Positions 4,737 to 60,564 of a stretch of DNA of 64,000 nt are shown here, piece by piece (position 1 is the first letter of the stretch; every line of letters begins with the position of its first letter). Below the pieces are notes generated by a model that did no database searches, had not been told where the DNA came from, and was given only the letters and a program-made list of their open reading frames with translations. This DNA is from Acidimicrobiia bacterium (GTDB taxonomy: Bacteria > Actinomycetota > Acidimicrobiia > Acidimicrobiales > Bin134), in the NCBI GenBank assembly GCA_022827725.1, contig JAJEIJ010000005.1, forward strand, positions 462-64,461, in the 5' to 3' direction. The position numbers were made by a program, and so were the translations under genes.

Positions 4737-5723
4737 TCAGGCGTTGACTTGGGGGATTACTAGGTTGTGGAGCAGGTCGAGTTGCTCGGGGTTGTCGCTA
4801 GTGGGACCTAAGACGATGTATTCGCAGCCGCCGTCTTTGAGGTCGCGGAGACGGGCGGCGATCTCGTCGATGGATCCGAAGAAGTAGCTCTTCTCTAAGT
4901 GGTCGCGGGTGCGGTGGGTGCCCATGGCCTGCTCGAAATAGATGTGCTGCTCTTCGCGGGCCTTGGCAGGATCATTGGTGTCCACGATGTAGATGAAGTT
5001 GCAGTGGCCGAACCGGGGTGGCTCGGAGTCTCTAGCGGCTGCGGCATCTTTAATGACCTGCCAGTCGTTGTGGACCCATTGCTGCTGGCCGGAGCAGCGC
5101 GACAGCCACCAGTCGGCGCCGAGGATGCGGTTGAGCACGGTTTTTGCGAGCACGGGCCGGTCGTTGTCGAAGGTGCCGTCGGGGATGCGGGACCCGCCGG
5201 CAACCCACACGTTGGGCATTCTGGGCGGGCGGGGGTCGATGGTGACGCTGTCGAATGAGTAGAACTCGCCTTCGTATGTGGCGTCGTCGGTGGTGAGGAG
5301 CAGGCGGACGGCTTCGAGTATCTCGTCGGTGCGCTTGCCCCGTTCACTGATATGGGTGCCGGTGGCTTCGAATTCGGGACCGTACCAGCCGGGACCGATG
5401 CCGAATTGGTAGCGGCCGCCGGTGAGGTAGTCCATGGTGGCGACTTCTTTGGCCAGTACAACGGGGTGGCGGAGGGGCACCACCAGGATGCCGGTTCCGA
5501 CCATCTGTACATCAGGGGCGACGGCGGCGGCGTGGGTCAGCACGGTCATGGGCTCCAGCCAAGGCATCCCGTAGAGGCCAGGGGCGTGGAGGAGGTGGTC
5601 GATTACCCACAGGTCAATGTCGTAGTCGTTGGCCTTCTTGGAGAAGGTGTCGGTGCCTTGGCGAGCCCGCTCGTAGTCGAGCCCCGGGTAGGCGTAGGAA
5701 GGGATCCAGGCTCCGAAGCGCAT
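4737..5723 (-). CDS. LLM-class flavin-dependent oxidoreductase
   Basis: LWVIDHL, PLRHPVVLAKEVATMDYLTGGR, GIGPGW. RBS AAGGAG. Confidence 0.9.
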   Translation of the reverse strand: MRFGAWIPSYAYPGLDYERARQGTDTFSKKANDYDIDLWVIDHLLHAPGLYGMPWLEPMTVLTHAAAVAPDVQMVGTGILVVPLRHPVVLAKEVATMDYLTGGRYQFGIGPGWYGPEFEATGTHISERGKRTDEILEAVRLLLTTDDATYEGEFYSFDSVTIDPRPPRMPNVWVAGGSRIPDGTFDNDRPVLAKTVLNRILGADWWLSRCSGQQQWVHNDWQVIKDAAAARDSEPPRFGHCNFIYIVDTNDPAKAREEQHIYFEQAMGTHRTRDHLEKSYFFGSIDEIAARLRDLKDGGCEYIVLGPTSDNPEQLDLLHNLVIPQVNA

Positions 5724-8065: not shown

Positions 8066-10437
8066 GCGGCCCGTCGCCCCGGCTGTTCGGTGCTCGTGTC
8101 CCGAGGGTGGAGGACGACCGTCTGCTCAAAGGGCAGGGCCGGTTCGTGGCCGATGTCTCCTTCCCCGGCACGCTGTCCGCCAAGTTCGTCCGCTCCGACG
8201 AAGCGTCCTCCGACATCTGCGACTTCGACGTCAAAGAGGCACTCGCTTGCGAAAAGGTGCGGGCAGTGTTTACCGGCGACGATTTCGCCGGTGCGGAGAT
8301 CCGCTGTGTGTCCGCCTACGAGGGGTTCCAGCCGTCCGCGCAGCCCATTCTTGCCGTCGGCCGGACTCGGTACGCCGGGGAGGCGGTGGCCATGGTCATA
8401 GCCGACGACGAATATGCCGCCGAGGACGCCGGCGAGCACGTCACGTTTGCCTGCCACCCATTGGAGCCGGTCGCCGGGCTCGACGACGTGCTCGGAGAAG
8501 ACCGGGAGCCGGTCCACTCTGGGTGGGTCGACCACGCGTTCGTGCGCCGCTCAATGGCGACCGACGGGTTCGAGGAGGCGGCCGGGTCCGCCGCGCACCG
8601 GGTGACCGTCGAGCTTCGCAACGCCCGCCACGGGGCGATCCCGATGGAAGGGCGAGCGTGCGTCGCCCGCTACGACCAGGGCTCCGGGCTGTTCGAACTT
8701 TGGACCACCACCCAGATCCCACACCTGATTCGCGCCGGCCTCTCCGACGCCCTCGGGGTGGCAGAGAGCCGCATAAGGGTGATCTCCCCCGACGTGGGCG
8801 GTGGATTCGGCGTCAAAGCGCAGCTGTACCCCGAGGAGGTCGCCTGCTGTTTGGCTGCCCGTGAGCTGGGCCGACCGGTGAAATGGGTGGAGGACCGGCG
8901 CGAGCACTTTTTTGCGTCCCATCACTCCCGTGAGCACCGCCACCGGGTGACTGGCTACTTCAACGACGATGGGATCCTCTTGGCGCTCGAGGCCGACATC
9001 GCAGTCGACATGGGCGCCTACTCGGTGTTCCCGTGGACGTCGACCATGGACTGCGGGATGGCCATGGGCATCCTCCCCGGCCCCTATCGGGTCGCGGAGT
9101 ACTCGGTGACCGGAACAGCCTATTGCACCAACAAGGCCCCATACGGGGCGTACCGGGGCGTGGCCCGTCCCGCAGCGTGCTTTTCCATCGAGCGGCTCAT
9201 GGACAGAATCGCCAGGCACCGGGGCGCTGATCGGACCGAGATACGGCGCCGCAACCTCATCGGCCCAGACGACTACCCCTGGCATTCCGCGTCCGGGTTG
9301 GTTTACGACTCCGGGTCGTTGCCCGAATCGCTAGACAAAGCCCTTGAAGTTGGCGGCCACAATCGGCTGTTCGCCGATCAAGCAGCGGCCAGGGCCGAAG
9401 GGCGCCTGTTCGGGATCGGGCTGGCGGTGTTTACCGAGCAGACCGCTCACACCACCCGCGAGTTCCAGCAGCGGGGCGTGCCGATCGTGTTTGGGTACGA
9501 GACGGCCAAAGTCCGACTAGATGCAACAGGTACAGCGGTCGTGTCCGCGTCGATCCACGATCACGGCCAAGGGCTGGAGACCACTCTCGCCCAGATAGCC
9601 GCCGACCGGCTCGGCCTGAGCATCGAGGACATCAGGGTGGAGTACGGCGACACCGACCAGGTGGCCTATGGGGCTGGCACATTCGCGAGCCGCTCCGCGG
9701 TGCTCGCTGGCGGGGCAGTCGTCAAAGCAGCCGACGCGGTGGCCGAAACGCTCCGCCAGGTAGCCGCTCACCGCTTCGAGGCGTCGCCCGCCGACATCGT
9801 GATCGGCCAGGGCTGCCTCTCGGTGTCGGGGTCGCCCGGCGCGTCCATTGAGATCGCCGAGCTCTGCCGGCTCGTATACCAGCGCCCCGAGTCCCTCCCT
9901 CGTGGGGTTGAGCCGATCCTGGAGGCGTCGCGTACATACGACGCCGACCCCGGCACCGGGGTGTACACCAACGCCGCGCACCTGGCCTCCGTCGAAATCG
10001 ACCCGCTTACCGGCAAAACGATGGTTCTGTCCTACGCGATCGCCGAGGACTGCGGGCCGATGATCAACCCGACCATTGTCGAGGGACAGATCTTCGGCGG
10101 CGTCGCCCAGGGAATCGGCACCGCCCTGTTTGAGGAGTTCGTCTACGACGACGAGGCCCGCCTGCTGACCACCACCTTCTCGGACTACCTCATCCCCACC
10201 ATGACCGACATACCCGACTTCGACGTCGCCCACCTTGAGACCCCATCTCCTCACACCATCGGCGGCCTCAAAGGCATGGGGGAGGGCGGCGCGATCGCAC
10301 CCGGCGCGGCTATCGCCGCAGCCGTCGAAGACGCTCTATCAGCCGTCGGCGACGTGTTCGTCGACCAACTGCCCCTCACCCCCGAACGGGTGCTCGCCTG
10401 GCTCAACCAGGCCCGAATACAAGGAGATGGCCAATGA
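8062..10437 (+). CDS. Molybdopterin-binding large subunit (CoxL-like molybdo-hydroxylase, not form I CODH)
   Basis: DVGGGFGVK, GQGLETTLAQ, GTFASRS, KGMGEGG. Active-site loop AYRGVAR rather than AYxCSFR. Confidence 0.9.
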   Translation: MSGPSPRLFGARVPRVEDDRLLKGQGRFVADVSFPGTLSAKFVRSDEASSDICDFDVKEALACEKVRAVFTGDDFAGAEIRCVSAYEGFQPSAQPILAVGRTRYAGEAVAMVIADDEYAAEDAGEHVTFACHPLEPVAGLDDVLGEDREPVHSGWVDHAFVRRSMATDGFEEAAGSAAHRVTVELRNARHGAIPMEGRACVARYDQGSGLFELWTTTQIPHLIRAGLSDALGVAESRIRVISPDVGGGFGVKAQLYPEEVACCLAARELGRPVKWVEDRREHFFASHHSREHRHRVTGYFNDDGILLALEADIAVDMGAYSVFPWTSTMDCGMAMGILPGPYRVAEYSVTGTAYCTNKAPYGAYRGVARPAACFSIERLMDRIARHRGADRTEIRRRNLIGPDDYPWHSASGLVYDSGSLPESLDKALEVGGHNRLFADQAAARAEGRLFGIGLAVFTEQTAHTTREFQQRGVPIVFGYETAKVRLDATGTAVVSASIHDHGQGLETTLAQIAADRLGLSIEDIRVEYGDTDQVAYGAGTFASRSAVLAGGAVVKAADAVAETLRQVAAHRFEASPADIVIGQGCLSVSGSPGASIEIAELCRLVYQRPESLPRGVEPILEASRTYDADPGTGVYTNAAHLASVEIDPLTGKTMVLSYAIAEDCGPMINPTIVEGQIFGGVAQGIGTALFEEFVYDDEARLLTTTFSDYLIPTMTDIPDFDVAHLETPSPHTIGGLKGMGEGGAIAPGAAIAAAVEDALSAVGDVFVDQLPLTPERVLAWLNQARIQGDGQ

Positions 10438-11897
10438 CCTCGGTGACGCTCATACAGCTGCCGGCCGCGGTGCAGACGGGAGACGGCCCAGACCTGATCG
10501 GAACGGCCGAAGAGCAGATCCGTGCTGCTGCCGAATCCGACCTGATCATCCTCCCGGAAGTGTGGTATCCCGGCTACTTCTCGTTCGACGGTTATTCCAC
10601 TGCATCGGACATGACCCCGAAGCTGCTCGAGCGGCTCGCCGGACTCGCTGCCGAGACCGGGAGTTGCCTGCACGCCGGGTCACTCATCGAAGCAGACGGC
10701 GACCGTCTCTACAACACTTCGGTCCTGTTCGGCCCCGACGGTGGCGAGCTGGGTCGATACCGCAAGATTCACCTGTTCGGCTACGGCAGCAAAGAACAGG
10801 AATACCTCACCGCGGGAACCGACGTGGTTGTATCCGAAACGCCGTTGGGCCGTCTCGGCCTCGCCGTGTGCTATGACTTGCGGTTCCCCGAGCTGTTTCG
10901 TCGCATGACCGAGATGGGCGCTGTCGGCTTCTTGGTTGCGTCGGCGTGGCCGCACCCAAGGGTGGAGGCCTGGTCAACGCTGCTGCGGGCGCGAGCCATT
11001 GAGAACCAGGCGTTCGTCGTCGCCTGCAACGGCGTTGGGCAGACCGGATACCAGACGGCACTGTGCGGCCGTTCCGCGGTGATTGACCCGTGGGGCACCA
11101 CCCTCACATCCCTCGGCGACGACCCTGGCACCGCTACCGCCCAAATCGACCTGCAAGGGCCCGCCGACGCCCGGGATCGGTTCCCGGCTCTCGCCGACCG
11201 CCGCCTGCTGGGCGAGCCCGGTAACGATTTGGTGTTCCGCACTGACGATGGCACCCCGCTCCGGTTCTCCGCCAAGCGGCTGATCCTCGCCGGCTACACC
11301 GCCAGAGACACCGCCTCGGTGGATGCGTACATCGCGAAGTTGGAAGTGGAGGGCATCGCGCCGCCCGACGAGGTGCCCTCGTACTTCGTTCTCGGAGCCG
11401 ACCGGCTCACCACCGATACCGAAATCGAGGTGGCAACGGCTTCATCGTGCGGCGAGGTCGAATACGCCCTTCTGGTCGCCGATAGCGAGGTGTGGGTCGC
11501 GGCGGCGTCAGACCACACCGACCGGGCCCTCGAAACCGTGGACATGGCCGCCTCCAAGCAGAGCTGCGCCAAGGTGCTCTCCGCTGACGTGTGGCGGCTA
11601 AGCGACCTTGAGGATCACTGGGACGATCTCATGTTCAGAGCGTGGACCCCGGTCGGTTCGCAGAACACCTATCAGGCCGGCCCGGTCGCCGCCCTCAAAC
11701 CTCCGTCGGAGCTGCTGCGCCTAGTTGAGGATCGGTTCGGCGGACCGATGGATGGCACGGTGATCCTGTCCGGCACCATCCCTGCGAGAGGCGAGTTCGA
11801 GTTCCACCCCTCTTTCACCGCGCAGCTGCGCGACCCGGTCACCGCCCGCTCCCTGACCGCCTCGTATTCCGTAATCAACGTCTTGGAGGACAATTGA
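10434..11897 (+). CDS. Carbon-nitrogen hydrolase (nitrilase superfamily) fused to a DUF2848-like domain
   Basis: N-terminal LPE...YRKIHLF...VCYDLRFPE (E-K-C triad). C-terminal LILAGYTARD...GIAPP...GEVE...SDHTDR...SKQSCAK. Confidence 0.8.
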   Translation: MTSVTLIQLPAAVQTGDGPDLIGTAEEQIRAAAESDLIILPEVWYPGYFSFDGYSTASDMTPKLLERLAGLAAETGSCLHAGSLIEADGDRLYNTSVLFGPDGGELGRYRKIHLFGYGSKEQEYLTAGTDVVVSETPLGRLGLAVCYDLRFPELFRRMTEMGAVGFLVASAWPHPRVEAWSTLLRARAIENQAFVVACNGVGQTGYQTALCGRSAVIDPWGTTLTSLGDDPGTATAQIDLQGPADARDRFPALADRRLLGEPGNDLVFRTDDGTPLRFSAKRLILAGYTARDTASVDAYIAKLEVEGIAPPDEVPSYFVLGADRLTTDTEIEVATASSCGEVEYALLVADSEVWVAAASDHTDRALETVDMAASKQSCAKVLSADVWRLSDLEDHWDDLMFRAWTPVGSQNTYQAGPVAALKPPSELLRLVEDRFGGPMDGTVILSGTIPARGEFEFHPSFTAQLRDPVTARSLTASYSVINVLEDN

Positions 11898-15588: not shown

Positions 15589-15654
15589 CGTCAAGTCAGC
15601 TACCCAGAGAAAGGAAATGACGTGGAGTCAACCCCCACCAAGAGAGGAACCAAA

Positions 15655-17007
15655 ATGAAACGGACAACGCCCAGATGGCTGCGGCTCGTCGCGGCCATGC
15701 TCGCGCTGGCTGTGATCGCAGCGGCGTGCGGCAACGACGACGACGGAGACGGCCCTGCCGCCCCCGCCGACCAAGCCGCGCCCGAAGCGACTGCCGCAGC
15801 CCCCGAAGCGACCGATGGGGCAACGGCCCCCGAGCCGACCGAGGCACCCGATGCGTCTGAAGGCGGGGAACCCGTTGATGAGCCCGGCGAGGTCACCATC
15901 GGCGTGCTTGTGCCCCTCACTGGCGAGCTCGGCGAGTTTGGCAAGATCGTTGCCGACGCCATCGAGTTCGGCGTAGGGGAGATCAACGCGGCCGGCGGCA
16001 CCGTGTGCGGCGATATCCGCACTGTTGTCGCAGACACCGGCGGCGACCCCGAGACCGGCATCAGAGAGGCGACGAACATGATCGAGAGCGAGGGTGCAAT
16101 CGCCATCTTGGGCCCGACGTCGGGGATCATGGTCGCTCTGGTCGACCTGGCCAAGCGGGAGGAAGTGGTCATCATGTCGCCCTACGCGGGGACGATCACC
16201 CTCAACGAGCTCGGCGGCGACTTTGTCTACCGGACTGTGTCGTCCGACCTCGGCGACGGTGCCGCTTCGGGCCTGTGGCTCTCCACCAGGGGCTACGGAT
16301 CGGTCGCGTTCATGGTTCAGAACGAGGAATCCACCATCTCCCCGGCCGAGGTGGCCAGGACCGAGGTGGAGGAAGCCGGGATCGACATCACCGACTTCGT
16401 CGTCTACAACCCAGGCCAGCCGTCCTACCAGGCCGAACTGACCTCGGTGCTCGCTAGCGACCCTGACGCGATCTTCTTGGCCGGCGGCCAGGAATCCGGT
16501 GTCACCCTCATCAAGGAAGCAGTCGCCGGCGGGTTCGACGGGGAGTGGCTGTTCACCGCCGACCTGGCCGTGCCCGAGATCTTTGACGCCGTCGGCGCCG
16601 AACTGATCAACGACAAGGCCTTCGTCGAGTTCGCTGACGCCGATCCGTCCCTGCCCGAGTTCATCTCATTCGAGGAGCGGTATCCCGGCGCAGGCGCGCC
16701 GTTCGCGCCCAACTCATTCGACATGGTCACCTTGGTGGCCCTGTCCCTTGAGGCCAGCGGACAATGCGACGGAGCGGGCATCAACTCGGTCATCCGTGGT
16801 GTGTCCGACGGCGGTAGCCCGGTGTCGACCTTCGCTGAGGGCCGCGACGCCCTAGCCGCCGGAGACGACATCAACTACGAAGGCGCCTCCGGGCCGCTTG
16901 TGTTCGATCCATCCGGAACCGTCTCTGGCGCTTACACCATCCAGCAGGCGCAGAACGGCGAATGGGTCAACGTCGAGTTCTACCCCGCGTCAACGTTCGT
17001 CGAATAG
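15655..17007 (+). CDS. ABC substrate-binding lipoprotein (LivJ/K type)
   Basis: Lipobox IAAAC, A/P/E-rich linker, IGVLVPLTG, INYEGASG. Confidence 0.88.
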   Translation: MKRTTPRWLRLVAAMLALAVIAAACGNDDDGDGPAAPADQAAPEATAAAPEATDGATAPEPTEAPDASEGGEPVDEPGEVTIGVLVPLTGELGEFGKIVADAIEFGVGEINAAGGTVCGDIRTVVADTGGDPETGIREATNMIESEGAIAILGPTSGIMVALVDLAKREEVVIMSPYAGTITLNELGGDFVYRTVSSDLGDGAASGLWLSTRGYGSVAFMVQNEESTISPAEVARTEVEEAGIDITDFVVYNPGQPSYQAELTSVLASDPDAIFLAGGQESGVTLIKEAVAGGFDGEWLFTADLAVPEIFDAVGAELINDKAFVEFADADPSLPEFISFEERYPGAGAPFAPNSFDMVTLVALSLEASGQCDGAGINSVIRGVSDGGSPVSTFAEGRDALAAGDDINYEGASGPLVFDPSGTVSGAYTIQQAQNGEWVNVEFYPASTFVE

Positions 17008-17289: not shown

Positions 17290-18156
17290 CTAGTCGGGGG
17301 GCAGGAAGGTGTCGGTTTCGGCCCAGAGCGCCTCCAAGCGGTCGATGCGTTGCTGGGCATCGTCTCGGGTGATGGCGGCGACTTCGGCGACTATGAGCTC
17401 GGCGACGACGACCGCGGGGACGGAGCTGTCGAATGGGCCGACGGCGGGGACCGACAGCTGGCACAGCACGTCCGCCATGGCGGCCAGTGGGGATAGCGGG
17501 CTGTCGGTGACCGCGGCGATGGGAACGCCGAGATTGGCCAGCGCTCGGGTGGCTGCGACTGAGGAGCGGCGGTAGCGGTAGAAGTCGATGGCGATGCCCA
17601 AGTCGTTCGGCCCGGCACCCGCCAGGCTGCTTGCCGCCGATTGTTCGTCGAGCAGGTGCACCCGAGGGCGGATCATTGACAGGCCGCTGCGCAGCGCGTG
17701 GGCGCCGGCCTGAGAGGTCTCTCCGGACACTATCCACACCGCCTCCGCGGCTGCCGTCCGCTCGGCGATGGCTTTGGTCTCCCCGCGGGCCGCAGACTCG
17801 GTGGCCGACTCGAAGGCGGCGGCAAGCTTGTCCAAGTCGGTCGGCTGTCCGGAAGGGGCCCGGCGGATGCGGTCGCGGGGGCGGGTTAGGGCGTCCTCAA
17901 CCCTCCGGCGGGCCACGTCTTGCAAAGCCGCGTAGCTGTCGAGCCCCAATTTGGTGGCGAAGCGGGCGATTGACGGGCGGCTGGTGCCGATGCGGTCGGC
18001 CAGGTCCGAGACCGTCCCGAAAGCCAGCAGCGTCGGCTCGGCAACCACTTCTTCGGCGATTCGCCGCTCGGTCGGGGTCAGATCCTCGCCAGCCCTGGCG
18101 ACCAGCTCGGCCACCGTCATCGGCGGAGTGGGATCTGCGTCCGCCTCAGATGCCAT
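17290..18156 (-). CDS. MurR/RpiR family transcriptional regulator
   Basis: LTPTERRIAE...TSRPSIARFATKLG HTH and SIS domain (AVTDSPLSPL). Divergent from the aminomutase operon. Confidence 0.88.
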   Translation of the reverse strand: MASEADADPTPPMTVAELVARAGEDLTPTERRIAEEVVAEPTLLAFGTVSDLADRIGTSRPSIARFATKLGLDSYAALQDVARRRVEDALTRPRDRIRRAPSGQPTDLDKLAAAFESATESAARGETKAIAERTAAAEAVWIVSGETSQAGAHALRSGLSMIRPRVHLLDEQSAASSLAGAGPNDLGIAIDFYRYRRSSVAATRALANLGVPIAAVTDSPLSPLAAMADVLCQLSVPAVGPFDSSVPAVVVAELIVAEVAAITRDDAQQRIDRLEALWAETDTFLPPD

Positions 18157-18184
18157 AACTACCCCTTCCCGGCGTGCAATTGAA

Positions 18185-18200
18185 TGTACAATATAGTACA
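18185..18200. promoter_or_regulatory. Putative RpiR operator TGTAC-N6-GTACA
   Basis: TGTACAATATAGTACA inverted repeat in the AT-rich divergent promoter, next to TGGTATAAAT. Confidence 0.55.
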
Positions 18201-18286
18201 ATTATGGTATAAATCTGTTCACTAGCGAACACTAGCTGGTGAGCGGCCCGACAGGGAGACAATCCGAGCGGAGGTCAGAGCACACC

Positions 18287-19726
18287 ATGGCAAAGGCAAA
18301 ATACGAGCCGGCCGAACGGGAGCGGCTGGTTCTCGACACGGTCGAGAACCCCCGATACGACCGCGAGATCCTCAACGGCCTCGACCCGTTCATCAGCGGC
18401 ACCGCCCCTGAGGACATGCGCGGATTCTACAGCTCCTCGGAAATCGAGCGGCTGCTCCATATCAAAGACACCGACCGGGACATCGAATCCCGCATGCCGG
18501 TCAAGATCACCCGCCACTTCTTCGAGATGGCCAAGAACAGCCCCTCCCTCCAGAAGCTCGTCAAGGCGTCGCCCGATGAGACGCTCAACCTGGACGGCGC
18601 GGAGGATCCCGGAAACCAGATGGACTACAGCCCCGTCGAGGGCCTCATCCACAAGTACGAGATGGGCCTCCTATACGTGATCTCGACGTGCTCAGCGCAC
18701 TGCCGGTTCTGCTACAGGGAAGAGCTGATTGCCCGCAAGCCCGTTGAGCGCCACGACGGCACGGTCGAGAAGAAGGGCCTCGCCCAGGTGCTCGAGGTCA
18801 CCGACTACATACGGGCCCACAACGCCGCAGTCGCGGCCAACGGGGGCCGGCACCCCGAGACCGGCCGGGAGAAGCTCCGCGAGATCCTCCTGTCGGGCGG
18901 CGACCCGATGGTTCTGCCCAACAGCAAGCTGGCCGCCTGGTTCACCGCCCTGGCTGAAGCAGGAGTGGAGGCAATCCGGCTCGGCACCAAGGAACTGGCC
19001 TTCTACCCCGACCGGTTCGACAGCGCCTTCTTGGACATGATGGACCACTTCCACGACACCTACCCGGACGTCGGTTTTCGGTTGATGACCCACTTCAACC
19101 ACCCCGACGAGCTTCTGGTCAAAGACCAAGACGGTAACTACATCGAGGACGGCAACGGCTTCCTCGAGTGGAACCCCAGCACCCAGCGGGCCGTGGAAGC
19201 CGTCGTGTCCCGGGGGTGGATCAGCGTGGAGAACCAGTCGCCCATCATCAGAGGCGTCAACAACGACCCCGACGCGCTGCGAATCCTCCAGCGCACCCTG
19301 AAGCGGGTCGGCATCGAGAACCACTACTTCTTCTGCGGGCGCGACATCGTCGCCTACCGAGCGTTCAACGTGCCCATTGAGGACGCCTGGCAGATCCTCA
19401 ACGAATCCCAGAAAGGACTGTCCGGGGTGGAAGCCCACGCCCGCCTGTCGATCACCCACTACAAAGGCAAGACCGAGGTGTCCGCCGTTACCGATGAGCC
19501 CGTCCCGGGTCTTGCGGGAGCTGAGAACGGGGTCGTCGTCTTCAAGATCCTGCGCAGCGCCGCCGAAGCGCCCGACCGGGGGAAGGTGTGCATCGTGGGC
19601 CGCAACCCGAAGGCGCTGTGGTTCGACGACTACGAAGACCGGGTGCTGTTCGACGAGGCTGGCCTCTTCGACTACAACCGCGTTAAGCCGGTCGCTGCCG
19701 ACGAGCTCACCGCTATCCCGGCCTGA
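18287..19726 (+). CDS. KamA-family radical SAM/PLP amino-acid 2,3-aminomutase
   Basis: GLIHKY, CSAHCRFCYR (CxxxCxxC plus carboxylate-binding Arg), LLSGGDPM, IRLGTK, THFNHPDE, NQSPIIRGVN, candidate PLP lysine in YKGKT. Confidence 0.85.
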   Translation: MAKAKYEPAERERLVLDTVENPRYDREILNGLDPFISGTAPEDMRGFYSSSEIERLLHIKDTDRDIESRMPVKITRHFFEMAKNSPSLQKLVKASPDETLNLDGAEDPGNQMDYSPVEGLIHKYEMGLLYVISTCSAHCRFCYREELIARKPVERHDGTVEKKGLAQVLEVTDYIRAHNAAVAANGGRHPETGREKLREILLSGGDPMVLPNSKLAAWFTALAEAGVEAIRLGTKELAFYPDRFDSAFLDMMDHFHDTYPDVGFRLMTHFNHPDELLVKDQDGNYIEDGNGFLEWNPSTQRAVEAVVSRGWISVENQSPIIRGVNNDPDALRILQRTLKRVGIENHYFFCGRDIVAYRAFNVPIEDAWQILNESQKGLSGVEAHARLSITHYKGKTEVSAVTDEPVPGLAGAENGVVVFKILRSAAEAPDRGKVCIVGRNPKALWFDDYEDRVLFDEAGLFDYNRVKPVAADELTAIPA

Positions 19727-19740
19727 GCGAACGGGCCGGC

Positions 19741-20451
19741 GTGATCGACAAGCGGGTCGCCGACCCCGCCCAAGCCGTCGCCAGCATTGACGAAGGGTCA
19801 ACCGTCATGATCGGTGGGTTCGGCGAGGCGGGCAGCCCCATCGAGCTGATCCACGCCCTCATCGACCAGGGCTCTAGCGGGCTCACCGTCGTTAATAACA
19901 ACACCGGCACCGGCGAAGTCGGACTGGCTGCGCTTATCAGAGCCGGGCGGGTGGCCAAGATGATCTGCTCCTACCCCCGCAGCGCCAACTCGCGGGCGTT
20001 CCCCGACCTGTACCGGGCCGGGCGCATCCAACTCGAGCTGGTACCCCAGGGCACCCTCGCCGAGAGGATCCGAGCCGGCGGGGCCGGCATCCCCGCCTTC
20101 TACACCCCAACCGCCGTCGGCACCGAGCTTGAAGCTGGCAAAGAGCAGCGCGACTTCGACGGGCGACCCTGCCTGCTCGAGCGCGCCCTCACCGCCGATT
20201 TCGCGCTCATCAAAGCCCGGCGGGCCGACTGGCACGGCAACCTCGTGTACAACAAGACCGCCCGCAACTTCTCCCCCCTTATGGCCACCGCGGCCGTGAC
20301 CACCATCGTGCAGGCCGCCGCCGTTGACGCGCCCGGGACCATAGACCCCGAGACAGTTATCACCCCCGGCATCTACGTCGACCGAGTCGTTTGCATCCCC
20401 GACCCAGCCCACGAATCGAGGCTCGTCGCCCAGGGCGCCGCCTATCCATGA
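19741..20451 (+). CDS. pcaI: 3-oxoacid (3-oxoadipate-type) CoA-transferase subunit A
   Basis: MIDK, IGGFGEAG, NNTGTGEVGLAALI, ICSYPR, PQGTLAERIRAGGAGIPAFYT. Confidence 0.85.
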   Translation: MIDKRVADPAQAVASIDEGSTVMIGGFGEAGSPIELIHALIDQGSSGLTVVNNNTGTGEVGLAALIRAGRVAKMICSYPRSANSRAFPDLYRAGRIQLELVPQGTLAERIRAGGAGIPAFYTPTAVGTELEAGKEQRDFDGRPCLLERALTADFALIKARRADWHGNLVYNKTARNFSPLMATAAVTTIVQAAAVDAPGTIDPETVITPGIYVDRVVCIPDPAHESRLVAQGAAYP

Positions 20452-21164
20452 GCGCACCGGTGCCCATCAAGGGCCGCAGCAGGGACGAGATGGCCGCTCG
20501 GGCAGCTAAGGACATTCCCGACGGTGCCTACGTCAACCTGGGCATCGGGATGCCTGAACTGGTTGCCCAGCACATCCCGTCGGACCGTGAAGTTATCCTC
20601 CACACCGAAAATGGGCTGCTCGGCATGGGCCCGCCCCCCATGGGTACGGCTGCGGACCCCGAGTTGATAAACGCCGGCAAGCAGCCGGTCACCGCCATAG
20701 CGGGCGCATCGTACTTTCACCATGGCGACAGCTTCGCCATGATCCGAGGCGGCCACCTCGACTTCTGCGTGCTCGGAGCGCTTGAGGTGGCGGCGAACGG
20801 AGACCTCGCCAACTGGTCCACCGGTGAGCGAAACGCCATTCCTGCCGTCGGAGGGGCAATGGACCTCGTCTCAGGCGTGAAAAACGTGTTCGTGATGACC
20901 GCTCACTGCACCCGCGACGGAACGCCCAAACTCGTTGAGTCCTGCTCATACCCGATCACTGGGCGGGGCGCGGTCAGCCGCATCTACACCGACCTCGCCG
21001 TAATCGACATTGGGCCAGGGGGGTTTGAGCTCGTCGAGCTGGCCCCCGGAATCCGCCTCGATGACGTCGCCGCCCGCACCGCCGCCCCTATCTGTGACAA
21101 CCGGCCACCTCGGGAAACCGGGCCGGCTCAGGCGGCCCGCCCGCTGGGGAATGCCCATGGGTGA
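20448..21164 (+). CDS. pcaJ: 3-oxoacid CoA-transferase subunit B
   Basis: YVNLGIGMP, catalytic HTENG, SFAMIRGGH, GDLANW, PAVGGAMDL. Confidence 0.85.
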   Translation: MSAPVPIKGRSRDEMAARAAKDIPDGAYVNLGIGMPELVAQHIPSDREVILHTENGLLGMGPPPMGTAADPELINAGKQPVTAIAGASYFHHGDSFAMIRGGHLDFCVLGALEVAANGDLANWSTGERNAIPAVGGAMDLVSGVKNVFVMTAHCTRDGTPKLVESCSYPITGRGAVSRIYTDLAVIDIGPGGFELVELAPGIRLDDVAARTAAPICDNRPPRETGPAQAARPLGNAHG

Positions 21165-22470
21165 GCCCGACGGCACTCCTATCTCTCGCTCCCTGTACGA
21201 GCGGGCCGTGCGGGTAATGCCTGGCGGAGCCAGCCGCAACAGCGCCATCCGCGAGCCCCACCCCCTCTACGCGGCCCGAGCCGACGGGTGCCGCATCACC
21301 GATGTCGACGGCGCAGAGCGGATCGACTTCGCCAACAACATGGCCTCTCTCATCCACGGCCACGCTCACCCCGCCATCGTTTCCGCCGTCGCGAACCAAC
21401 TCCGAAAAGGCACCGCGTCCACACTCTCAACCGAGGTGGAGGTGCGATTCGCCGAGCACCTCTGCTCCCGCAACCCCAATTTCGAGAAGGTCCGATTCGC
21501 CAACTCCGGCACCGAAGCGGTCATGGGCGCACTCAAAGCCGCTCGGGCCTTCACCGGGCGGACCAAGGTCGCCAAAGCCGAAGGGGCCTACCACGGCCTC
21601 TATGACTACGCCGAAGTCAGCCAGACCGCCCGACCTTCTAACTGGGGTGACCTCGACAGCCCGGCATCGGTTCCCGTCGCCCACGGCACCCCGCAGCCCG
21701 TCCTTGACGACGTCGTTGTCATCCCTTACAACGACCCGGAACGGGCCGTCGCCATCCTCGATCGCCACGCTGACGAGATTGCATGTGTCCTGTTGGACGT
21801 CATGCCCCACTGGGCCGGCCTGTGCCCCGCCACCCCCGCTTACGCCTCCGCTCTGCAACGATGGGTGGGCCACAACGGTGCCCTACTGGTGGCTGACGAG
21901 GTCATCACCTTCAGGAACTCCTACGGCGGAGCCCAGCAGCAATACGGCCTGGCTCCCGATATCACCGCCATGGGCAAGATCATCGGCGGTGGGTTCCCAG
22001 TCGGAGCCATCGCCGGGCGGGCCCACATCATGGAGATGATGAACCCCCTAGGCGACAGTTACCTGCTGCCCTACTCCGGTACATTCTCCGCCAATCCCGT
22101 CACCATGACCGCCGGGCTGACCGCCATGGAGCTCTACGACCAGGCTCAAATCGACCACGTCAACCGCCTCGCGGAACTCGCTGTCGGTGCCATCAACGAC
22201 ACCATCAAGACTTTGGGCGCTCCCGCCAGCGTCACCGGTGCCGGTTCCATGTTCCGAATCCACATGCGCGCCGACCCGCCCGCCAACCACCGCGAGACCC
22301 ACTCCGACCCCGTGACAGCCGAACGGCTCAAACAGTTCTATAACAGAATGCTCGACTGCGGGATCCTGCTCATATACAGCGGCGCCGGAGCCATCTCCAC
22401 CCCGATGGGCGAAGCAGAGATCGACCAGCTCGTCGCCGCCGTCGATACATCCCTAGCCGCCCTCCGATGA
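21157..22470 (+). CDS. Class III PLP aminotransferase (HemL-like, beta-amino-acid aminotransferase type)
   Basis: MPGGASR, IHGH, NSGTEA, GAYHG, DEVIT, MGKIIGGGFPVG, SGTFSANP. Confidence 0.85.
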   Translation: MGEPDGTPISRSLYERAVRVMPGGASRNSAIREPHPLYAARADGCRITDVDGAERIDFANNMASLIHGHAHPAIVSAVANQLRKGTASTLSTEVEVRFAEHLCSRNPNFEKVRFANSGTEAVMGALKAARAFTGRTKVAKAEGAYHGLYDYAEVSQTARPSNWGDLDSPASVPVAHGTPQPVLDDVVVIPYNDPERAVAILDRHADEIACVLLDVMPHWAGLCPATPAYASALQRWVGHNGALLVADEVITFRNSYGGAQQQYGLAPDITAMGKIIGGGFPVGAIAGRAHIMEMMNPLGDSYLLPYSGTFSANPVTMTAGLTAMELYDQAQIDHVNRLAELAVGAINDTIKTLGAPASVTGAGSMFRIHMRADPPANHRETHSDPVTAERLKQFYNRMLDCGILLIYSGAGAISTPMGEAEIDQLVAAVDTSLAALR

Positions 22471-22521: not shown

Positions 22522-23706
22522 ATGCGTGACGTGTACATCGCCGATGCGGTCCGCACCCCGATCGGCAAGATCGGCGGTGCCCTCGCCGGCACACGCCCCG
22601 ACGACCTCGCAGCCTCCGCCATCGCTGGGCTGCTCGCCCGCAGTCCCAGCCTCGACCCCGCCCACATCGGCGACGTGTGCTTTGGCAACGGCAACGGCGC
22701 CGGCGAGGAGAACCGCAACGTCGCCCGTATGGCGCTGCTGCTAGCCGGCGTACCCCCCGCCGTACCTGGCGTTACTGTAAACCGGCTCTGCGGGTCAGGG
22801 CTCGAAGCTGCCGTCATGGCCAGCCGGGAGATCGCCGTCGGCGACGCCGACATCTGCATCGCCGGAGGCGTCGAATCCATGAGCCGCGCCCCATGGGTCG
22901 TCCCCAAACCGGAGCGGCCCTACGAACGCGGCCACCAGCAGATGCACTCCACCACCCTCGGCTGGCGGCTCGTCAATCCCCGCCACCCCCCAGAATGGAC
23001 GATCCCCCTCGGTGAGGGCGCCGAGATCCTTGCCGACCAATGCGCCATCACCCGCCAAGAGCAGGATCAATTCGCCTGCCAAAGCCACCAAAGGGCACAC
23101 GAGGCCTGGTCTACCGGGAAATTCGAAGCAGAAATCGTCCCAGTCGACGGAGTTGACCTCGCCGTCGACGAATCCGTCCGCCCCGACACCAAAATCGAAG
23201 CGCTCGCCGGGCTGAGCCCCGCCTTCTGCCATGAGGGGACGGTCACTGCCGGCAATTCGTCGCCGATGAACGACGGCGCAGCCGCCGTTCTCTTGGCCTC
23301 CGACGCCGGGATGCAGCGCATGGGCCGGGAGCCGCTCGCCCGTATTGCGGCCCGGGCCGTATCCGGTGTCGAGCCCCACCTGTACGGAATCGGACCCGTA
23401 GTAGCCGCCGAGACCGCCCTCCATTGGGCCGGTATCGGCTGGGGCGACCTGTCCGCGGTCGAGCTCAATGAGGCATTCGCAGCCCAAGCTCTCGCCTGTA
23501 TGCGCCTATGGCCTGACCTCGACCCGACCATCGTCAACCCCAATGGCGGGGCGATCGCCATCGGACACCCCATTGGCGCATCCGGCGCTCGGATCCTCGC
23601 CACCCTTGCCCACCAGTTGCACCGCAGCCGGGGCCGCTACGGCATGGCCGCCCTGTGCATCGGCGTCGGCCAAGGCATCGCCGTCGTCATAGAGCGGCTC
23701 TCGTGA
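22522..23706 (+). CDS. pcaF: 3-oxoadipyl-CoA thiolase (PcaF/PaaJ-like)
   Basis: RPDDLAA, GAGEENRNVARM, NRLCGSG, GVESMSRAP, NEAFA, GHPIG, LCIGVGQG. Confidence 0.8.
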   Translation: MRDVYIADAVRTPIGKIGGALAGTRPDDLAASAIAGLLARSPSLDPAHIGDVCFGNGNGAGEENRNVARMALLLAGVPPAVPGVTVNRLCGSGLEAAVMASREIAVGDADICIAGGVESMSRAPWVVPKPERPYERGHQQMHSTTLGWRLVNPRHPPEWTIPLGEGAEILADQCAITRQEQDQFACQSHQRAHEAWSTGKFEAEIVPVDGVDLAVDESVRPDTKIEALAGLSPAFCHEGTVTAGNSSPMNDGAAAVLLASDAGMQRMGREPLARIAARAVSGVEPHLYGIGPVVAAETALHWAGIGWGDLSAVELNEAFAAQALACMRLWPDLDPTIVNPNGGAIAIGHPIGASGARILATLAHQLHRSRGRYGMAALCIGVGQGIAVVIERLS

Positions 23707-37242: not shown

Positions 37243-37329
37243 AGTGGCGGCGGCGAATTTGCGGTCCAGGATCCCTCTCCCGTCTCAGGCGTGGTTAGCC
37301 ATCGTACGGCGACTACTAGTTTGCTGAGG

Positions 37330-38145
37330 GTGAAGTTCGGGTTTCCGTTTATCTCACTGCACCCGGGGGCGTGGGTCGAGGTGGCCCAGGCCGCCGATGA
37401 GGCCGGGTTCGAGTCGTGCTGGATCGCCGACCATCTGGTGTTCCCGGTGGAGATGGAGGGCTCGCTGGGCGATGTGGAACATCCCAACGTGCCGGCCACG
37501 GTGCCGGTGTACGACGCCCCGGCTTACCTCTCGTACCTGGCCGGCCAGACCACCCGCATCAACCTGGGCGTGTACGTGTACCTGGCCGGACTGCGCCATC
37601 CCTTCTCCACCGCCCGGGGTTTCGCCACCTTGGACCACGTCAGCAACGGGCGGGCGCTGTTCGGCGTGGGAGCGGGATGGCTGCGCAACGAGTGGACCGC
37701 CGCGGGGATGGACCCCCGCACCCGGGGCCGCCGCCTCGACGAGGCGCTCGATGTGTGCGTGCGGCTTTGGACCGAGCCCGAGGTGGAGCACCACGGCGAG
37801 TTCTACGACTTCGAGCCGGTGGCTTTCGAGCCCAAGCCCGTCCAGCAGCCCCATCCCCCGATACTGGTGGGCGGATTGTCCGACGCCGCCCTGCGCCGGG
37901 CCGCCCGCTACCAGGGGTGGATGGGCATGGGCGACTCTTTCGAGTCGGTGCGGGCCGCCGCCGATCGGCTGGCCGAACTCGGCGCGCCCGACATAGAGAT
38001 CACCGCCCAGGGCCGCTGCGAAACGCTCGATGACCTGCGCCGTTGGGAGGATGCCGGGGCCCACCGACTGGTGGTCACACCATGGGAGAGCACCAGCAAG
38101 GCGGTTGACTCACTCAGGCGGTTCGCGGAGCGGTTCATCTCCTGA
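37330..38145 (+). CDS. LLM-class (putatively F420-dependent) oxidoreductase
   Basis: GFESCWIADHL, LRHPF, TLDHVSNGR, GAGW, PKPVQQPHPPI. Confidence 0.88.
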   Translation: MKFGFPFISLHPGAWVEVAQAADEAGFESCWIADHLVFPVEMEGSLGDVEHPNVPATVPVYDAPAYLSYLAGQTTRINLGVYVYLAGLRHPFSTARGFATLDHVSNGRALFGVGAGWLRNEWTAAGMDPRTRGRRLDEALDVCVRLWTEPEVEHHGEFYDFEPVAFEPKPVQQPHPPILVGGLSDAALRRAARYQGWMGMGDSFESVRAAADRLAELGAPDIEITAQGRCETLDDLRRWEDAGAHRLVVTPWESTSKAVDSLRRFAERFIS

Positions 38146-53246: not shown

Positions 53247-54191
53247 ATGTCGGGGCTGTTTTCAGAGGTTGAACCATTCGAGGCTGGCCATTTGGATGTC
53301 GGCGATGGCAACAGCGTCTATTGGGAGATCTGTGGCAACCCGGAGGGGAAGCCAGCGCTGGTACTGCACGGCGGGCCGGGGAGCGGCTGCACCCCCACCC
53401 ATCGGCGGTTCTTCGACCCTTCCGTCTACAGGATCGTGCTGTTCGATCAGCGAGGGGCGGGCCGCAGCACTCCGCATGCCGGTGACATCGCCACGAGCCT
53501 TGAGCACAACACGACTGATCACTTAGTGCGGGACATAGAGGGGCTTCGGTCTCTTCTGGGCATCGACCGGTGGCTCGTGTTCGGCAACAGCTGGGGGTCG
53601 ACGCTAGGACTCGTATATGGCCAGCGGCACCCCGAGCGGGTGTCAGAGATTGTGTTGCTGGCAGTGACCACTTCTGATCCAGATGAGATCCACTGGCTGT
53701 ACCACGGCACCCGCCGCCTCTTCCCGGAAGCCTGGGAGCGGTTTCGGGCCGGTGCAGGGGTCAGCGGCCGAGATGACAATCTCGTTGCCGCGTACTACCG
53801 CTTGCTCAATAGCCCCGATCTCAGCGTTCGCGAGCAAGCTGCTGCGGAGTGGTGTCGGTGGGAGGACGCAGTGGTTTCAAGTGCCGAGCCGAACCCCCGC
53901 TACGACGACCCTCGATTCCGTATGGGGTTCGCCCGCATCGTCACTCACTACTTCCACCATGGGGCCTGGTTAGAACCCCGCCAGATCATCCGTAACGTTC
54001 ACCGCCTGCACGGCATTCCAGCGATATTGATCCACGGCCGGCTCGACCACAGCACCCCGATCGCCACTGCCCAGGAGCTTGCCAACGCCTGGTCCGACAG
54101 CGAACTCATCGTCGTTGACGCCGGTCACCTCGCCAGTGGGCCTGCCATGGTCCAGGCGACCGTCAATGCCACGAACTATTTCGGTCGCTAA
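53247..54191 (+). CDS. pip: Prolyl aminopeptidase
   Basis: GNPEG, LHGGPGSG, DQRGAGRS, GNSWG, HYF, HGRLD. Confidence 0.9.
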   Translation: MSGLFSEVEPFEAGHLDVGDGNSVYWEICGNPEGKPALVLHGGPGSGCTPTHRRFFDPSVYRIVLFDQRGAGRSTPHAGDIATSLEHNTTDHLVRDIEGLRSLLGIDRWLVFGNSWGSTLGLVYGQRHPERVSEIVLLAVTTSDPDEIHWLYHGTRRLFPEAWERFRAGAGVSGRDDNLVAAYYRLLNSPDLSVREQAAAEWCRWEDAVVSSAEPNPRYDDPRFRMGFARIVTHYFHHGAWLEPRQIIRNVHRLHGIPAILIHGRLDHSTPIATAQELANAWSDSELIVVDAGHLASGPAMVQATVNATNYFGR

Positions 54192-54238
54192 TGAATCATA
54201 ACAACTCTCAGAACTTGATAGCCACGATTGATGAAATG

Positions 54239-55369: not shown

Positions 55370-55428
55370 TTGTCTATCCTTGGTTGCTGGCCCCGAAAGA
55401 TGAATTGATCCAAATAACTCTCGGTGGC

Positions 55429-56403: not shown

Positions 56404-56426
56404 GGCCGCCTCCAGTCAGTAATCGA

Positions 56427-57539: not shown

Positions 57540-57632
57540 GCCAATCCCCTTGTGTGTGCGGCGCAGTTCCGAGGCCGATGGTAAACGGCGCGACCCCAAG
57601 CAGGCGCATTGGGCTCGGTTAGTGTGCGGGCC

Positions 57633-60477: not shown

Positions 60478-60564
60478 ACCCCACACTGGAAGTGGCACCA
60501 CCAGCCCAGGTTTGCCTGTCTCCAACGTCCCGCCAGCCGGTAATTTTGCAATGGGAGGTGTGAG

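Follow-up and report, generated by a model that had tools for sequence, protein, structure and literature searches.

A divergent KamA-family aminomutase with an arginine in its substrate pocket belongs to a conserved gene cassette that may degrade 2-aminoadipate

Results

A radical SAM aminomutase in a conserved gene cassette

The window analysed here is the whole 64,000-nucleotide stretch of DNA from an Acidimicrobiia bacterium. It encodes a protein with the fold and cofactor motifs of the KamA family of aminomutases, which carries an Arg at the alignment column of Asp293 of lysine 2,3-aminomutase (LAM) and whose gene neighbourhood is conserved across genomes. The cassette formed by this gene and its neighbours is probably catabolic for an acidic amino acid, with 2-aminoadipate the most likely substrate. 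With slightly less than even confidence, we predict a route from 2-aminoadipate through 3-aminoadipate and 3-oxoadipate to succinyl-CoA and acetyl-CoA. It is quite possible, if not quite probable, that the protein has a new radical SAM activity, that of a 2-aminoadipate 2,3-aminomutase, opening an undescribed α-aminoadipate route into the β-ketoadipate pathway, and that marine and sponge-associated bacteria from six or more phyla share the five- to six-gene cassette, horizontal transfer being the probable means of its spread. The neighbouring genes argue for this substrate more strongly than does the residue in the pocket.

Table 1. Genes of the cassette, the adjoining transporter gene and motifs of the aminomutase, with positions in the window.
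Feature	Position	Strand	Basis or remark
Liv-type ABC substrate-binding protein	15622..17007	+	permease and ATPase genes upstream from ~12200
RpiR-family regulator (HTH_6 + SIS)	17290..18201	-	Pfam; divergent from the aminomutase gene
KamA-family radical SAM/PLP aminomutase	ORF 18239..19726	+	GTG at 18239 opens the ORF; 495 aa
CSAHCRFCYR	18689..18718	+	[4Fe-4S] cysteines C151, C155 and C158; Arg160 corresponds to LAM Arg134
HYFFCGRD	19322..19345	+	holds the Arg368 codon (19340..19342) at the LAM Asp293 column
LSITHYKGK	19445..19471	+	Ser404 at the Asp330 column (alignment); PLP lysine Lys411, codon 19469..19471
3-oxoacid CoA-transferase subunit A (PcaI/ScoA family)	19741..20451	+	TIGR02429, 328 bits, cut-off 128.5
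3-oxoacid CoA-transferase subunit B (PcaJ/ScoB family)	20391..21164	+	TIGR02428, 287.7 bits, cut-off 243.55; probable start ATG at 20448
Class III aminotransferase, GSA-aminomutase/β-transaminase group	21010..22470	+	probable start near 21151
Thiolase nearest the 3-oxoadipyl-CoA thiolase family	22522..23706	+	top NCBIfam model pcaF, 473.5 bits, cut-off 597

The aminomutase is a divergent relative of LAM

The probable start of the aminomutase is the ATG at 18287, which is preceded by GGAGG and gives a 479-aa form (P0001). Residue numbers below are those of the 495-aa ORF; the P0001 numbers are lower by 16. An AF2 model of the protein (pLDDT 92.3, pTM 0.90) was matched best by chain B of the LAM (KamA) of Clostridium subterminale SB4 (2a5h_B; Z 34.2, rmsd 2.2 Å, 310 residues), with the runner-up at Z 13.9, and LAM is its sole solved relative. 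Like LAM, to which it is 20-24% identical, the protein has the CxxxCxxC motif, the SAM motif SGGD (S219-G-G-D222), HxxHPxE, NQ, the GK of the PLP lysine and the α-carboxylate Arg. The cluster motif was aligned by phmmer to C125, C129, C132 and R134 of 2a5h. Among 60 family members neither the cysteines nor GGD nor the glycine of GK varied, and the K was nearly invariant; in one of two homologue alignments (A1) the whole GK was invariant.

Unlike LAM, the protein has Asp in place of Cys268, a zinc ligand in that enzyme. It also lacks the C-terminal Cys motif of the fetched LAM, has a longer N-terminus and contains two insertions of ~24 residues each, one after the cluster motif and one after HFNHPDE, which appeared as gaps in pairwise and profile alignments. 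Against the KamA-family model TIGR00238 it scored 95.4 bits and did not reach the curated cut-off of 199.2. It likewise failed the models for lysine 2,3-aminomutase (TIGR03820; 78.7 bits, cut-off 525.4), glutamate 2,3-aminomutase (TIGR04368; 81 bits, cut-off 650) and the arginine 2,3-aminomutase BlsG (TIGR04468; 85.8 bits, cut-off 600). Judged by these scores, the protein is a divergent KamA branch that the TIGR00238 model misses. An earlier, sequence-only reading had suggested a separate subfamily with long insertions, and both the scores below every NCBIfam cut-off and the two insertions bear this out.

An Arg occupies the position of LAM Asp293

That reading had also placed an Arg by eye where LAM has Asp293, and the placement held in every alignment made. 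Arg368 fell in the Asp293 column with phmmer against 2a5h, with a 25-sequence profile against 2a5h, and with MAFFT alignments that took in fetched LAM, AblA, BlsG and EpmB. The Asp that follows the Arg in CGRD, raised at the time as the other possible occupant, lies off the Asp293 position because the anchor spacing is the same as in LAM: 36 residues from N(QS) to Arg and 8 from Arg to Phe, equal to the distances from N257 to D293 and from D293 to F301. This Asp is not conserved, being Asp or Asn within the clade and E, L, P, T or Q in relatives. The motifs [C/G]GR and CYR are present in all 80 genome loci described below, so Arg368 is not a chance occurrence. The CYR of the window protein matches C132-T133-R134 of 2a5h, and the α-carboxylate Arg is retained as had been claimed.

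The nine residues LSITHYKGK, which end at the PLP lysine, include no acidic residue. When the alignments are anchored on the PLP lysine, the counterpart of LAM Asp330 is Ser404, a position that varies among S, T and A in the clade, and not the Thr with which Asp330 had been paired by eye. The assignment comes from sequence alignment and is uncertain because LAM has one residue more in this segment; the profile alignment to 2a5h ends at the SG motif, before the Asp330 region. As first read, the protein has lost the two acidic residues of LAM, with Arg368 and Ser404 in its columns and no acidic side chain near the PLP lysine.

Among fetched aminomutases, Asp was found at the Asp293 column in LAM, AblA, EpmB and BlsG (which reads HCD there), whose substrates are basic by name or score; at the Asp330 column LAM and AblA have Asp and EpmB has Glu. 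No glutamate 2,3-aminomutase was found among the 60 plasmid-search records listed, in which LAM, AblA, BlsG and EpmB were present, or in two large clostridial and Paenibacillus records, and none of the 45 distant homologues exceeded any equivalog cut-off. Five glutamate-aminomutase-like proteins (L173-L177) from a sample of 401 genomes of one phylum were taken as stand-ins, their TIGR04368 scores of 618-637 bits lying just below the cut-off. In all five, Lys occupies the Asp293 column and Ser the Asp330 column. The C. difficile glutamate 2,3-aminomutase that Ruzicka and Frey described in 2007 reportedly has a Lys/Asn pair. Since Asp accompanies basic substrates and Lys the glutamate type, a basic residue at this column is what an acidic substrate would call for, and in the one known case the two go together.

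The window protein resembles the stand-ins in having a basic residue for Asp293 and a non-acid at the Asp330 column, and differs from them in having CGR where they have QAK, and THYKGK where they have APGGLGK leading to the PLP lysine. The suggestion that an Arg/Thr pair points to an acidic side chain, in a manner unlike the glutamate enzyme, thus survives in part: a basic residue does fit an acidic substrate and it is Arg, not Lys, but its partner is Ser, not Thr, and the substrate is one that we infer. Arg at the Asp293 column is also common in unclassified KamA-like proteins from other gene contexts, and the five long loci that were informative for the wider Arg-bearing clade have contexts unlike the cassette. 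Because it is so widespread, the residue alone does not name a substrate. In these comparisons it is no signature of the subfamily and, found as it is outside the clade, it may serve some broader purpose in KamA-like proteins. The earlier claim that the pocket supports the pathway independently of gene context did not withstand this comparison.

The neighbouring genes resemble those of the lower β-ketoadipate pathway

Both CoA-transferase subunits in the window pass the cut-offs of their family models (Table 1), which cover both PcaIJ and ScoAB and cannot separate them. The cassette thiolases (n=17, from 16 loci and the window) were compared with the pcaF equivalog model TIGR02430, whose cut-off is 597 bits. 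Nine of the 17 exceeded it, and six scored 562-585 bits, their best hit being pcaF or PRK09050, its sister model for 3-oxoadipyl-CoA thiolase; none of 14 control genomes passed the cut-off. The window thiolase lies below the cut-off, and its best hit is still pcaF. The thiolase of locus L004 is 79% identical to it by tblastn and was not among the matches listed at E <= 1e-150. The closest solved relative of the window thiolase is 7vtr (E 3.6e-166), which is Tfu_0875, described in PMC11061225 as having heightened specificity for succinyl-CoA.

The aminotransferase position in the cassette is filled by two lineages with a mutual identity of 30-33%. The window enzyme is nearest, among solved structures, to 6k8h (E 7e-115), a β/γ-amino acid transaminase according to PMC10589169, and then to ForI (6ssd; E 2e-104) and the β-transaminases 6iz9, 2yku and 4ao9. 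The Woeseiaceae-type enzyme is nearest to the same three β-transaminases (E ~1e-117).

The cassette is conserved across phyla

Homologues of the aminomutase were found in 80 GTDB genome loci from at least six phyla, with 69-93% identity. Judged by record titles, these reference genomes comprised 35 Actinomycetota, 22 Planctomycetota, 15 Gammaproteobacteria and 4 Acidobacteriota; Alphaproteobacteria, Chloroflexi and Krumholzibacteriia contributed a single locus apiece, and one locus was unassigned. Most source annotations read 'hypothetical', and together with the unusually high identity across phyla this points to a common function of marine heterotrophs that is going unannotated. The aminomutase gene adjoins CoA-transferase subunit A in 57 of the 80 loci, subunit B in 54, the RpiR regulator in 52, the aminotransferase in 49 and the thiolase in 16. 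At least three gene orders hold the same gene set, in two of which the thiolase lies within the operon. No further gene family recurred across phyla in the 80 loci; a transporter or source enzyme was sought there and none was common to the phyla. The Liv-type transporter is an accessory outside the shared core; L004, L008 and L009, all close relatives, are the only loci in which it adjoins the cassette. In 19 of the 80 loci the aminomutase gene stands alone, and the five solitary copies inspected (L005, L011, L012, L013 and L020) adjoin unrelated housekeeping genes such as serS.

Discussion

A proposed route for 2-aminoadipate

For the aminomutase and its cassette we infer chemistry, direction of flux and substrate identity as follows. 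The protein would be a LAM-like, PLP-dependent radical SAM amino acid 2,3-aminomutase for an acidic dicarboxylic substrate, with Arg160 holding the α-carboxylate and Arg368 the distal carboxylate. It would open a short catabolic sequence by converting L-2-aminoadipate to 3-aminoadipate, which the β-transaminase would convert to 3-oxoadipate. The PcaIJ-like CoA-transferase would then form 3-oxoadipyl-CoA with succinyl-CoA as donor, and the PcaF-like thiolase would cleave this to succinyl-CoA and acetyl-CoA. The RpiR-type regulator would control the whole cassette.

No lysine-to-aminoadipate genes were found in the window. The genome that contains the window (94.8% complete) has no lysine 6-transaminase (LAT) equivalog (best score 129.5 bits, cut-off 520.8), and neither a Sacchrp_dh_C domain nor HglS was found in it. 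The genome thus shows no evident source of 2-aminoadipate of its own, and the missing LAT, Sacchrp_dh_C and HglS say nothing on other routes to 2-aminoadipate.

The same four enzyme types would suit any R-CH2-CH(NH2)-COOH compound, and the substrate could be a neutral or aromatic amino acid. Leucine would pass through β-leucine and 3-oxo-4-methylpentanoate to isobutyryl-CoA and acetyl-CoA, the old 'β-keto' leucine pathway, for which we know of no aminomutase gene ever identified; phenylalanine would pass through β-phenylalanine and benzoylacetate to benzoyl-CoA. The Liv-type ABC transporter upstream in the window would agree with such a substrate, but its linkage is limited to three close relatives. 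The Woeseiaceae-type transaminase is nearest to β-phenylalanine transaminases, whereas the window's own genome has no BoxB for the breakdown of benzoyl-CoA. Since Arg at the Asp293 column is widespread in KamA-like proteins it need not bind a carboxylate; both arginines are kept, however, which fits two carboxylates, and a PcaF-type thiolase would release succinyl-CoA. We consider a neutral or aromatic substrate unlikely.

The glutamate-aminomutase-like proteins likewise have a basic residue in place of Asp293, and the one in the window protein would also suit a variant glutamate 2,3-aminomutase. Glutamate, or imported β-glutamate, would then yield 3-oxoglutarate, and this either 3-oxoglutaryl-CoA, cleaved to malonyl-CoA and acetyl-CoA, or by decarboxylation acetoacetate and acetoacetyl-CoA. 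The strong similarity of the window aminotransferase to ForI, which acts on a cyclic 3-oxo-dicarboxylate, is consistent with this, as is a CoA-transferase family model that takes in ScoAB along with PcaIJ. The score on the glutamate 2,3-aminomutase model is far below its cut-off, however, and the residue is Arg, not Lys. The cassette thiolases, with nine over the equivalog cut-off, are of the 3-oxoadipyl-CoA and not the acetoacetyl-CoA type, and simpler catabolic routes exist for glutamate. A glutamate substrate is thus quite improbable.

All four reactions are reversible in principle, and the cassette could run from succinyl-CoA and acetyl-CoA through 3-oxoadipate and 3-aminoadipate to 2-aminoadipate, or make a β-amino acid osmolyte or building block. 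The lack of a catabolic transporter conserved alongside the cassette, and of an evident 2-aminoadipate source in the window's own genome, would fit synthesis. Catabolic operons, however, have just this layout of a CoA-transferase and a thiolase with a repressor-type regulator in divergent orientation, the thiolase condensation is thermodynamically uphill and no downstream biosynthetic genes recur, which makes the biosynthetic direction most unlikely. That the protein is an ordinary LAM, the name that JGI gives to several homologues ('L-lysine 2,3-aminomutase') and the only solved relative, is scarcely credible, as both lysine-binding acidic residues are absent, the score on the LAM model falls far short, Cys268 and the C-terminal Cys motif of fetched LAM are missing and no lysine-fermentation genes lie near the aminomutase in the window.

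Several observations count against 2-aminoadipate as the substrate: the solitary aminomutase loci, the KamA-like proteins that have the Arg among other neighbours, the uncertain equivalent of Asp330, the failure of the window thiolase to reach the pcaF cut-off and of the L004 thiolase to appear among the matches listed, the lack of a transporter conserved with the cassette or of an evident 2-aminoadipate source in the genome, and the scant record of 3-aminoadipate as a metabolite. Arg has a longer side chain than the Lys found in the glutamate-type proteins, although 2-aminoadipate itself exceeds glutamate by one carbon. RpiR regulators usually respond to sugar phosphates.

Relation to known pathways

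The proposed 2-aminoadipate cassette resembles the lower β-ketoadipate pathway in its CoA-transferase subunits and in the nine of 17 adjacent thiolases that exceed the PcaF cut-off. It differs in that the module would be fed by an aminomutase and a β-transaminase and not by aromatic ring cleavage. With the β-transaminase systems of Mesorhizobium (2yku) and Variovorax (4ao9) it shares a GSA-aminomutase-like class III transaminase that would convert a β-amino acid to a β-keto acid. Unlike those systems, which start from a supplied β-amino acid, the cassette would make the β-amino acid from the α-amino acid, and its keto acid would be activated and cleaved, not left to decarboxylate.

A literature search, with most subscription journals outside its coverage, returned no account of an aminoadipate aminomutase or of this cassette, and no paper naming glutamate 2,3-aminomutase. 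3-Aminoadipate is hardly known as a metabolite: in the parts of the literature accessible to the search it comes up in one feeding study, in a method for metabolomics and in the analysis of a meteorite, while one reference title has β- for the α-aminoadipate precursor. To our knowledge, the established substrates of radical SAM 2,3-aminomutases are few, namely lysine, glutamate, arginine and the lysine used for EF-P. If the proposal is correct, the charge-reversed pocket would mark a fourth class of specificity and widen the chemistry of these enzymes, and a gene would be assigned to a β-amino acid route for which the search found no description. If the substrate is 2-aminoadipate, the cassette would provide a short, cofactor-light path from a lysine breakdown product to succinyl-CoA and acetyl-CoA. 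Its enzymes may also be of interest for making β-amino acids and adipate-family chemicals.

A putative aminomutase of the lysine 2,3-aminomutase type

The whole pocket finding lies within one ORF, whose 495 aa give the residue numbering used here; an ATG at 18287 with GGAGG ahead of it gives the 479-aa form found in public collections (P0001). A Pfam scan returned only a sub-threshold radical SAM signal, and the top NCBIfam match, the KamA family, scored 95.4 bits where the cut-off is 199.2. The protein fell far under the four named aminomutase equivalogs (cut-offs 369-650), scoring 78.7 for lysine, 81 for glutamate, 85.8 for arginine and 81.6 for EpmB. Of its homologues that carry a source name, most are named hypothetical protein and some lysine 2,3-aminomutase (LAM). 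The sole solved sequence relative was the LAM structure 2a5h (E 1.4e-14 with the single sequence, 1.5e-34 with a 25-sequence profile). An AlphaFold2 model from a 60-sequence alignment (mean pLDDT 92.3, pTM 0.90) also had 2a5h as its top structural match (Foldseek E 4.4e-18, TM 0.58/0.67), and VIA-align superposed 310 residues at 2.2 Å rmsd with a Z of 34.2, compared to 13.9 for the runner-up entry. The LAM cofactor motifs were kept, namely three cluster cysteines, SGGD, THFNHPDE, NQ and the PLP-lysine GK, and H-K-Y aligned with LAM H111-R112-Y113. In contrast to LAM, where Cys268 is a zinc ligand, the corresponding residue is Asp, and the C-terminal CDCDVC motif of the fetched LAM is absent. 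Alignments to 2a5h bore out the sequence-only reading on two long insertions, of ~24 residues after the cluster motif and ~24 after HFNHPDE, and on the retention of the alpha-carboxylate Arg after CxxxCxxC, Arg160 aligning with LAM Arg134. We conclude that this is a putative LAM-type aminomutase that would depend on PLP and SAM, a chemistry that we infer from the motifs.

Features of the aminomutase region, with the number of loci out of 80 that have the gene beside the aminomutase (from clustering of all ORFs in the 80 loci, many of which are cut by contig ends)
Feature	Start	End	Strand	Loci (of 80)	Remarks
Liv-type ABC transporter and binding protein		17007			before RpiR gene in window order
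RpiR regulator	17290	18201	opposite to aminomutase	52
Aminomutase ORF	18239	19726	+		495 aa
CSAHCRFCYR	18689	18718	+		cluster motif of aminomutase
HYFFCGRD	19322	19345	+		Arg368 codon 19340-19342
LSITHYKGK	19445	19471	+		Lys411 codon 19469-19471
3-Oxoacid CoA-transferase A	19741	20451		57	after aminomutase
3-Oxoacid CoA-transferase B		21164		54	after subunit A
Class III aminotransferase		22470		49	after CoA-transferase B
Thiolase	22522	23706		16	last in window order

An arginine replaces a lysine-binding aspartate

The proposal that an Arg stands in place of LAM Asp293 held in the pairwise phmmer alignment, the profile against 2a5h and three MAFFT alignments, all of which placed Arg368 there. 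No gap separates the anchors flanking Arg368, and the spacing equals that of LAM (N-R 36 and R-F 8 versus N257-D293 36 and D293-F301 8), so that the Asp of CGRD lies one position too far along to take the place of Asp293, contrary to the placement named as refuting the reading. Directly after Arg368, clade members have Asp or Asn and relatives E, L, P, T or Q. LAM Asp330 lies seven residues ahead of the PLP lysine, where the fetched AblA, EpmB (with Glu) and two LAM-like proteins from databases are likewise acidic. The corresponding column holds Ser404 in the aminomutase and S, T or A across the clade. Ser404 is the best available equivalent of Asp330 but not a certain one, since the segment from the SG anchor to the PLP lysine is one residue shorter (16 versus 17 in LAM) and the profile alignment to 2a5h ends ahead of this region. 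The suggested loss of an acid from LSITHYKGK was borne out, all nine residues leading up to the PLP lysine being non-acidic, but its pairing with Thr was not. The clade hallmarks are CG or GG ahead of the Arg (QC in relatives) and H-Y/F-K ahead of GK; the Lys of this loop is not essential, because some members have Arg, Gln or Leu. The equivalent of LAM Arg134 occurs in 80/80 clade members and is lost in several of the broader clade. Two conserved arginines would suit a substrate with two carboxylates.

For comparison, we took LAM from an Acetoanaerobium record, where it adjoins lysine-fermentation genes and carries YIYQCD and VVDAPGGGGK, and AblA, BlsG and E. coli EpmB, each by name, from annotated plasmid records. 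All four had Asp at the 293 column. Among 401 same-phylum genomes, five proteins came close to the cut-off of 650 on the glutamate 2,3-aminomutase model, at 618-637 bits; each had FQAKP, hence Lys at column 293, and Ser at column 330. This pattern agrees with the Lys and Asn reportedly described by Ruzicka and Frey in 2007 for the C. difficile enzyme. The suggestion that charge reversal signals an acidic side chain is therefore supported: Asp accompanies basic substrates, whereas the only acidic substrate known goes with a basic residue. By itself, though, the Arg leaves the substrate unnamed. A broader clade, sharing 31-49% identity with the aminomutase, has it almost without exception (consensus NHYFFQCR, MSTExGK), and it is present in most of 18 aligned unclassified KamA-like proteins (FQCRP, MSHxxGK). 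Since the Arg is so widespread and broader-clade neighbours differ, it names neither substrate nor pathway, and the claim that the pocket supports a pathway independently of gene context could not be upheld.

A conserved cassette and the proposed keto acid

A scan of one genome per species gave 80 loci with an aminomutase 69-93% identical to this one: by record title, 35 Actinomycetota, 22 Planctomycetota, 15 Gammaproteobacteria, 4 Acidobacteriota and one each from Alphaproteobacteria, Chloroflexi, Krumholzibacteriia and an unassigned source. Conservation at this level between phyla indicates strong constraint and probably horizontal spread. The gene set occurs in at least three orders, two with the thiolase inside the operon, and clustering of the ORFs in these loci revealed no real further family recurring across phyla. 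In 19 loci the aminomutase gene stands alone; the five solitary copies inspected adjoin unrelated genes such as serS. Solitary copies are mostly of a GGR and LT.VH variant and may differ in function. Between the divergent RpiR and aminomutase genes, 18202-18286 contains a near-repeat, TCACTAGC / ACACTAGC, that could be an operator of the RpiR regulator. Upstream of the Liv-type transporter lies a carbon-nitrogen hydrolase-DUF2848 fusion (10434-11897, +), and three close relatives alone, L004, L008 and L009, retain this block next to the cassette.

The cassette CoA-transferase subunits scored above the cut-offs of the PcaI/ScoA and PcaJ/ScoB subfamilies, but these cut-offs cannot tell enzymes for 3-oxoadipate from those for acetoacetate. 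The thiolases (n=17; 16 loci and the window) are more telling about the keto acid. Nine, at 603-680 bits, exceeded the strict cut-off of the 3-oxoadipyl-CoA thiolase equivalog (597), which was passed in none of 14 control genomes; six scored 562-585 bits, with pcaF or the sister 3-oxoadipyl-CoA thiolase model PRK09050 as top match; the window thiolase scored 473.5 bits, pcaF still being its top match; and that of L004 was absent from the matches at the threshold used (E <= 1e-150). The structure nearest to the window thiolase was 7vtr (E 3.6e-166), which is Tfu_0875, described in an excerpt of its source as having heightened specificity for succinyl-CoA (PMC11061225). The aminotransferase slot holds two lineages, mutually 30-33% identical. 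The window type is nearest to ForI and to 6k8h (E 7e-115), an omega-transaminase from Sphaerobacter acting on beta- and gamma-amino acids according to an excerpt of PMC10589169, and the Woeseiaceae type to the beta-transaminases 6iz9, 2yku and 4ao9 (E ~1e-117). Recruitment of two beta-transaminase-group lineages to one slot argues that the step converts a beta-amino to a beta-keto acid.

A possible 2-aminoadipate route and its alternatives

In the proposed pathway, the aminomutase would convert an alpha- to a beta-amino acid, the transaminase would yield the beta-keto acid, the CoA-transferase its CoA ester and the thiolase an acyl-CoA plus acetyl-CoA. A PcaF-type thiolase implies that the acyl-CoA is succinyl-CoA and the keto acid 3-oxoadipate, which in turn makes the beta-amino acid 3-aminoadipate and the starting compound 2-aminoadipate. 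The latter matches lysine in chain length but bears the opposite terminal charge, and would suit the pocket change. We tentatively favour this route, from 2-aminoadipate via 3-aminoadipate and 3-oxoadipate to succinyl-CoA and acetyl-CoA, at somewhat less than even confidence. Against it, the glutamate-type proteins have the shorter Lys where this protein has Arg, yet the substrate would be longer than glutamate; no transporter is conserved with the cassette; and 3-aminoadipate is barely recorded as a metabolite. Neither a lysine 6-transaminase equivalog nor a saccharopine dehydrogenase C domain nor HglS occurred in the window's own genome (94.8% complete); 2-aminoadipate would have to come from an external source or another route.

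Leucine, phenylalanine or another neutral or aromatic amino acid is an unlikely substrate, and the genome is without BoxB. Glutamate, reacting via beta-glutamate, we consider improbable. Operation of the cassette in a biosynthetic direction is very doubtful, and plain LAM activity hardly credible in a protein with Arg368 at the Asp293 position; the remaining probability falls to a different substrate or a different chemistry. While the aminomutase is familiar in fold and chemistry, its specificity is probably new. The cassette is undescribed in the literature searched, which left subscription journals mostly outside and held nothing relevant on an aminoadipate aminomutase, 3-aminoadipate or this gene combination, although absence is not proof.

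Relatives outside the cassette and other features of the window

When metagenomes were scanned for the broader clade, the loci recovered were mostly of the same clade as the aminomutase and in the same cassette, along with five long broader-clade loci with neighbours unlike the cassette. In two (L146:3652-6472 and L148:5833-8757) the relative directly adjoins a class I/II aminotransferase; another has a class III aminotransferase ~4 kb off, and in one the scanned genes include no aminotransferase. In the metagenome locus L093 (4494-7392 and 9234-10001), a 45% identical relative of FQCR type directly follows a class III aminotransferase, with panC (pantoate-beta-alanine ligase) two genes downstream; it is a candidate for a different substrate, possibly linked to beta-alanine. 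Throughout the Arg-bearing branch, it seems, aminomutases tend to be paired with aminotransferases.

The window's own genome has a second KamA-like radical SAM gene (contig C17, L001:1129-2493, +; 454 aa), every NCBIfam score of which was under cut-off. In its product, too, Arg occupies the Asp293 column (YYMFVERD), but the loop ahead of the PLP lysine differs (SATPGK), and the gene adjoins a GMP synthase-like gene recognised by translation alone. Five long homologues (P0154, P0164, P0170, P0171 and P0173; 605-721 aa) have low-complexity N-termini and a C-terminal extension with a conserved Cys motif, C..SC.TCV, which may be an added iron-sulfur domain.

Elsewhere in the window, G+C falls to 0.53 (54001-56000) and 0.59-0.60 (60001-64000) compared to ~0.62-0.69 over the remainder, and these stretches may be foreign DNA. 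Four luciferase-like monooxygenase genes are scattered in the window (4737-5723, 37291-38145 and 55429-57599), which also has several acyl-CoA ligase, hydratase and dehydrogenase genes.
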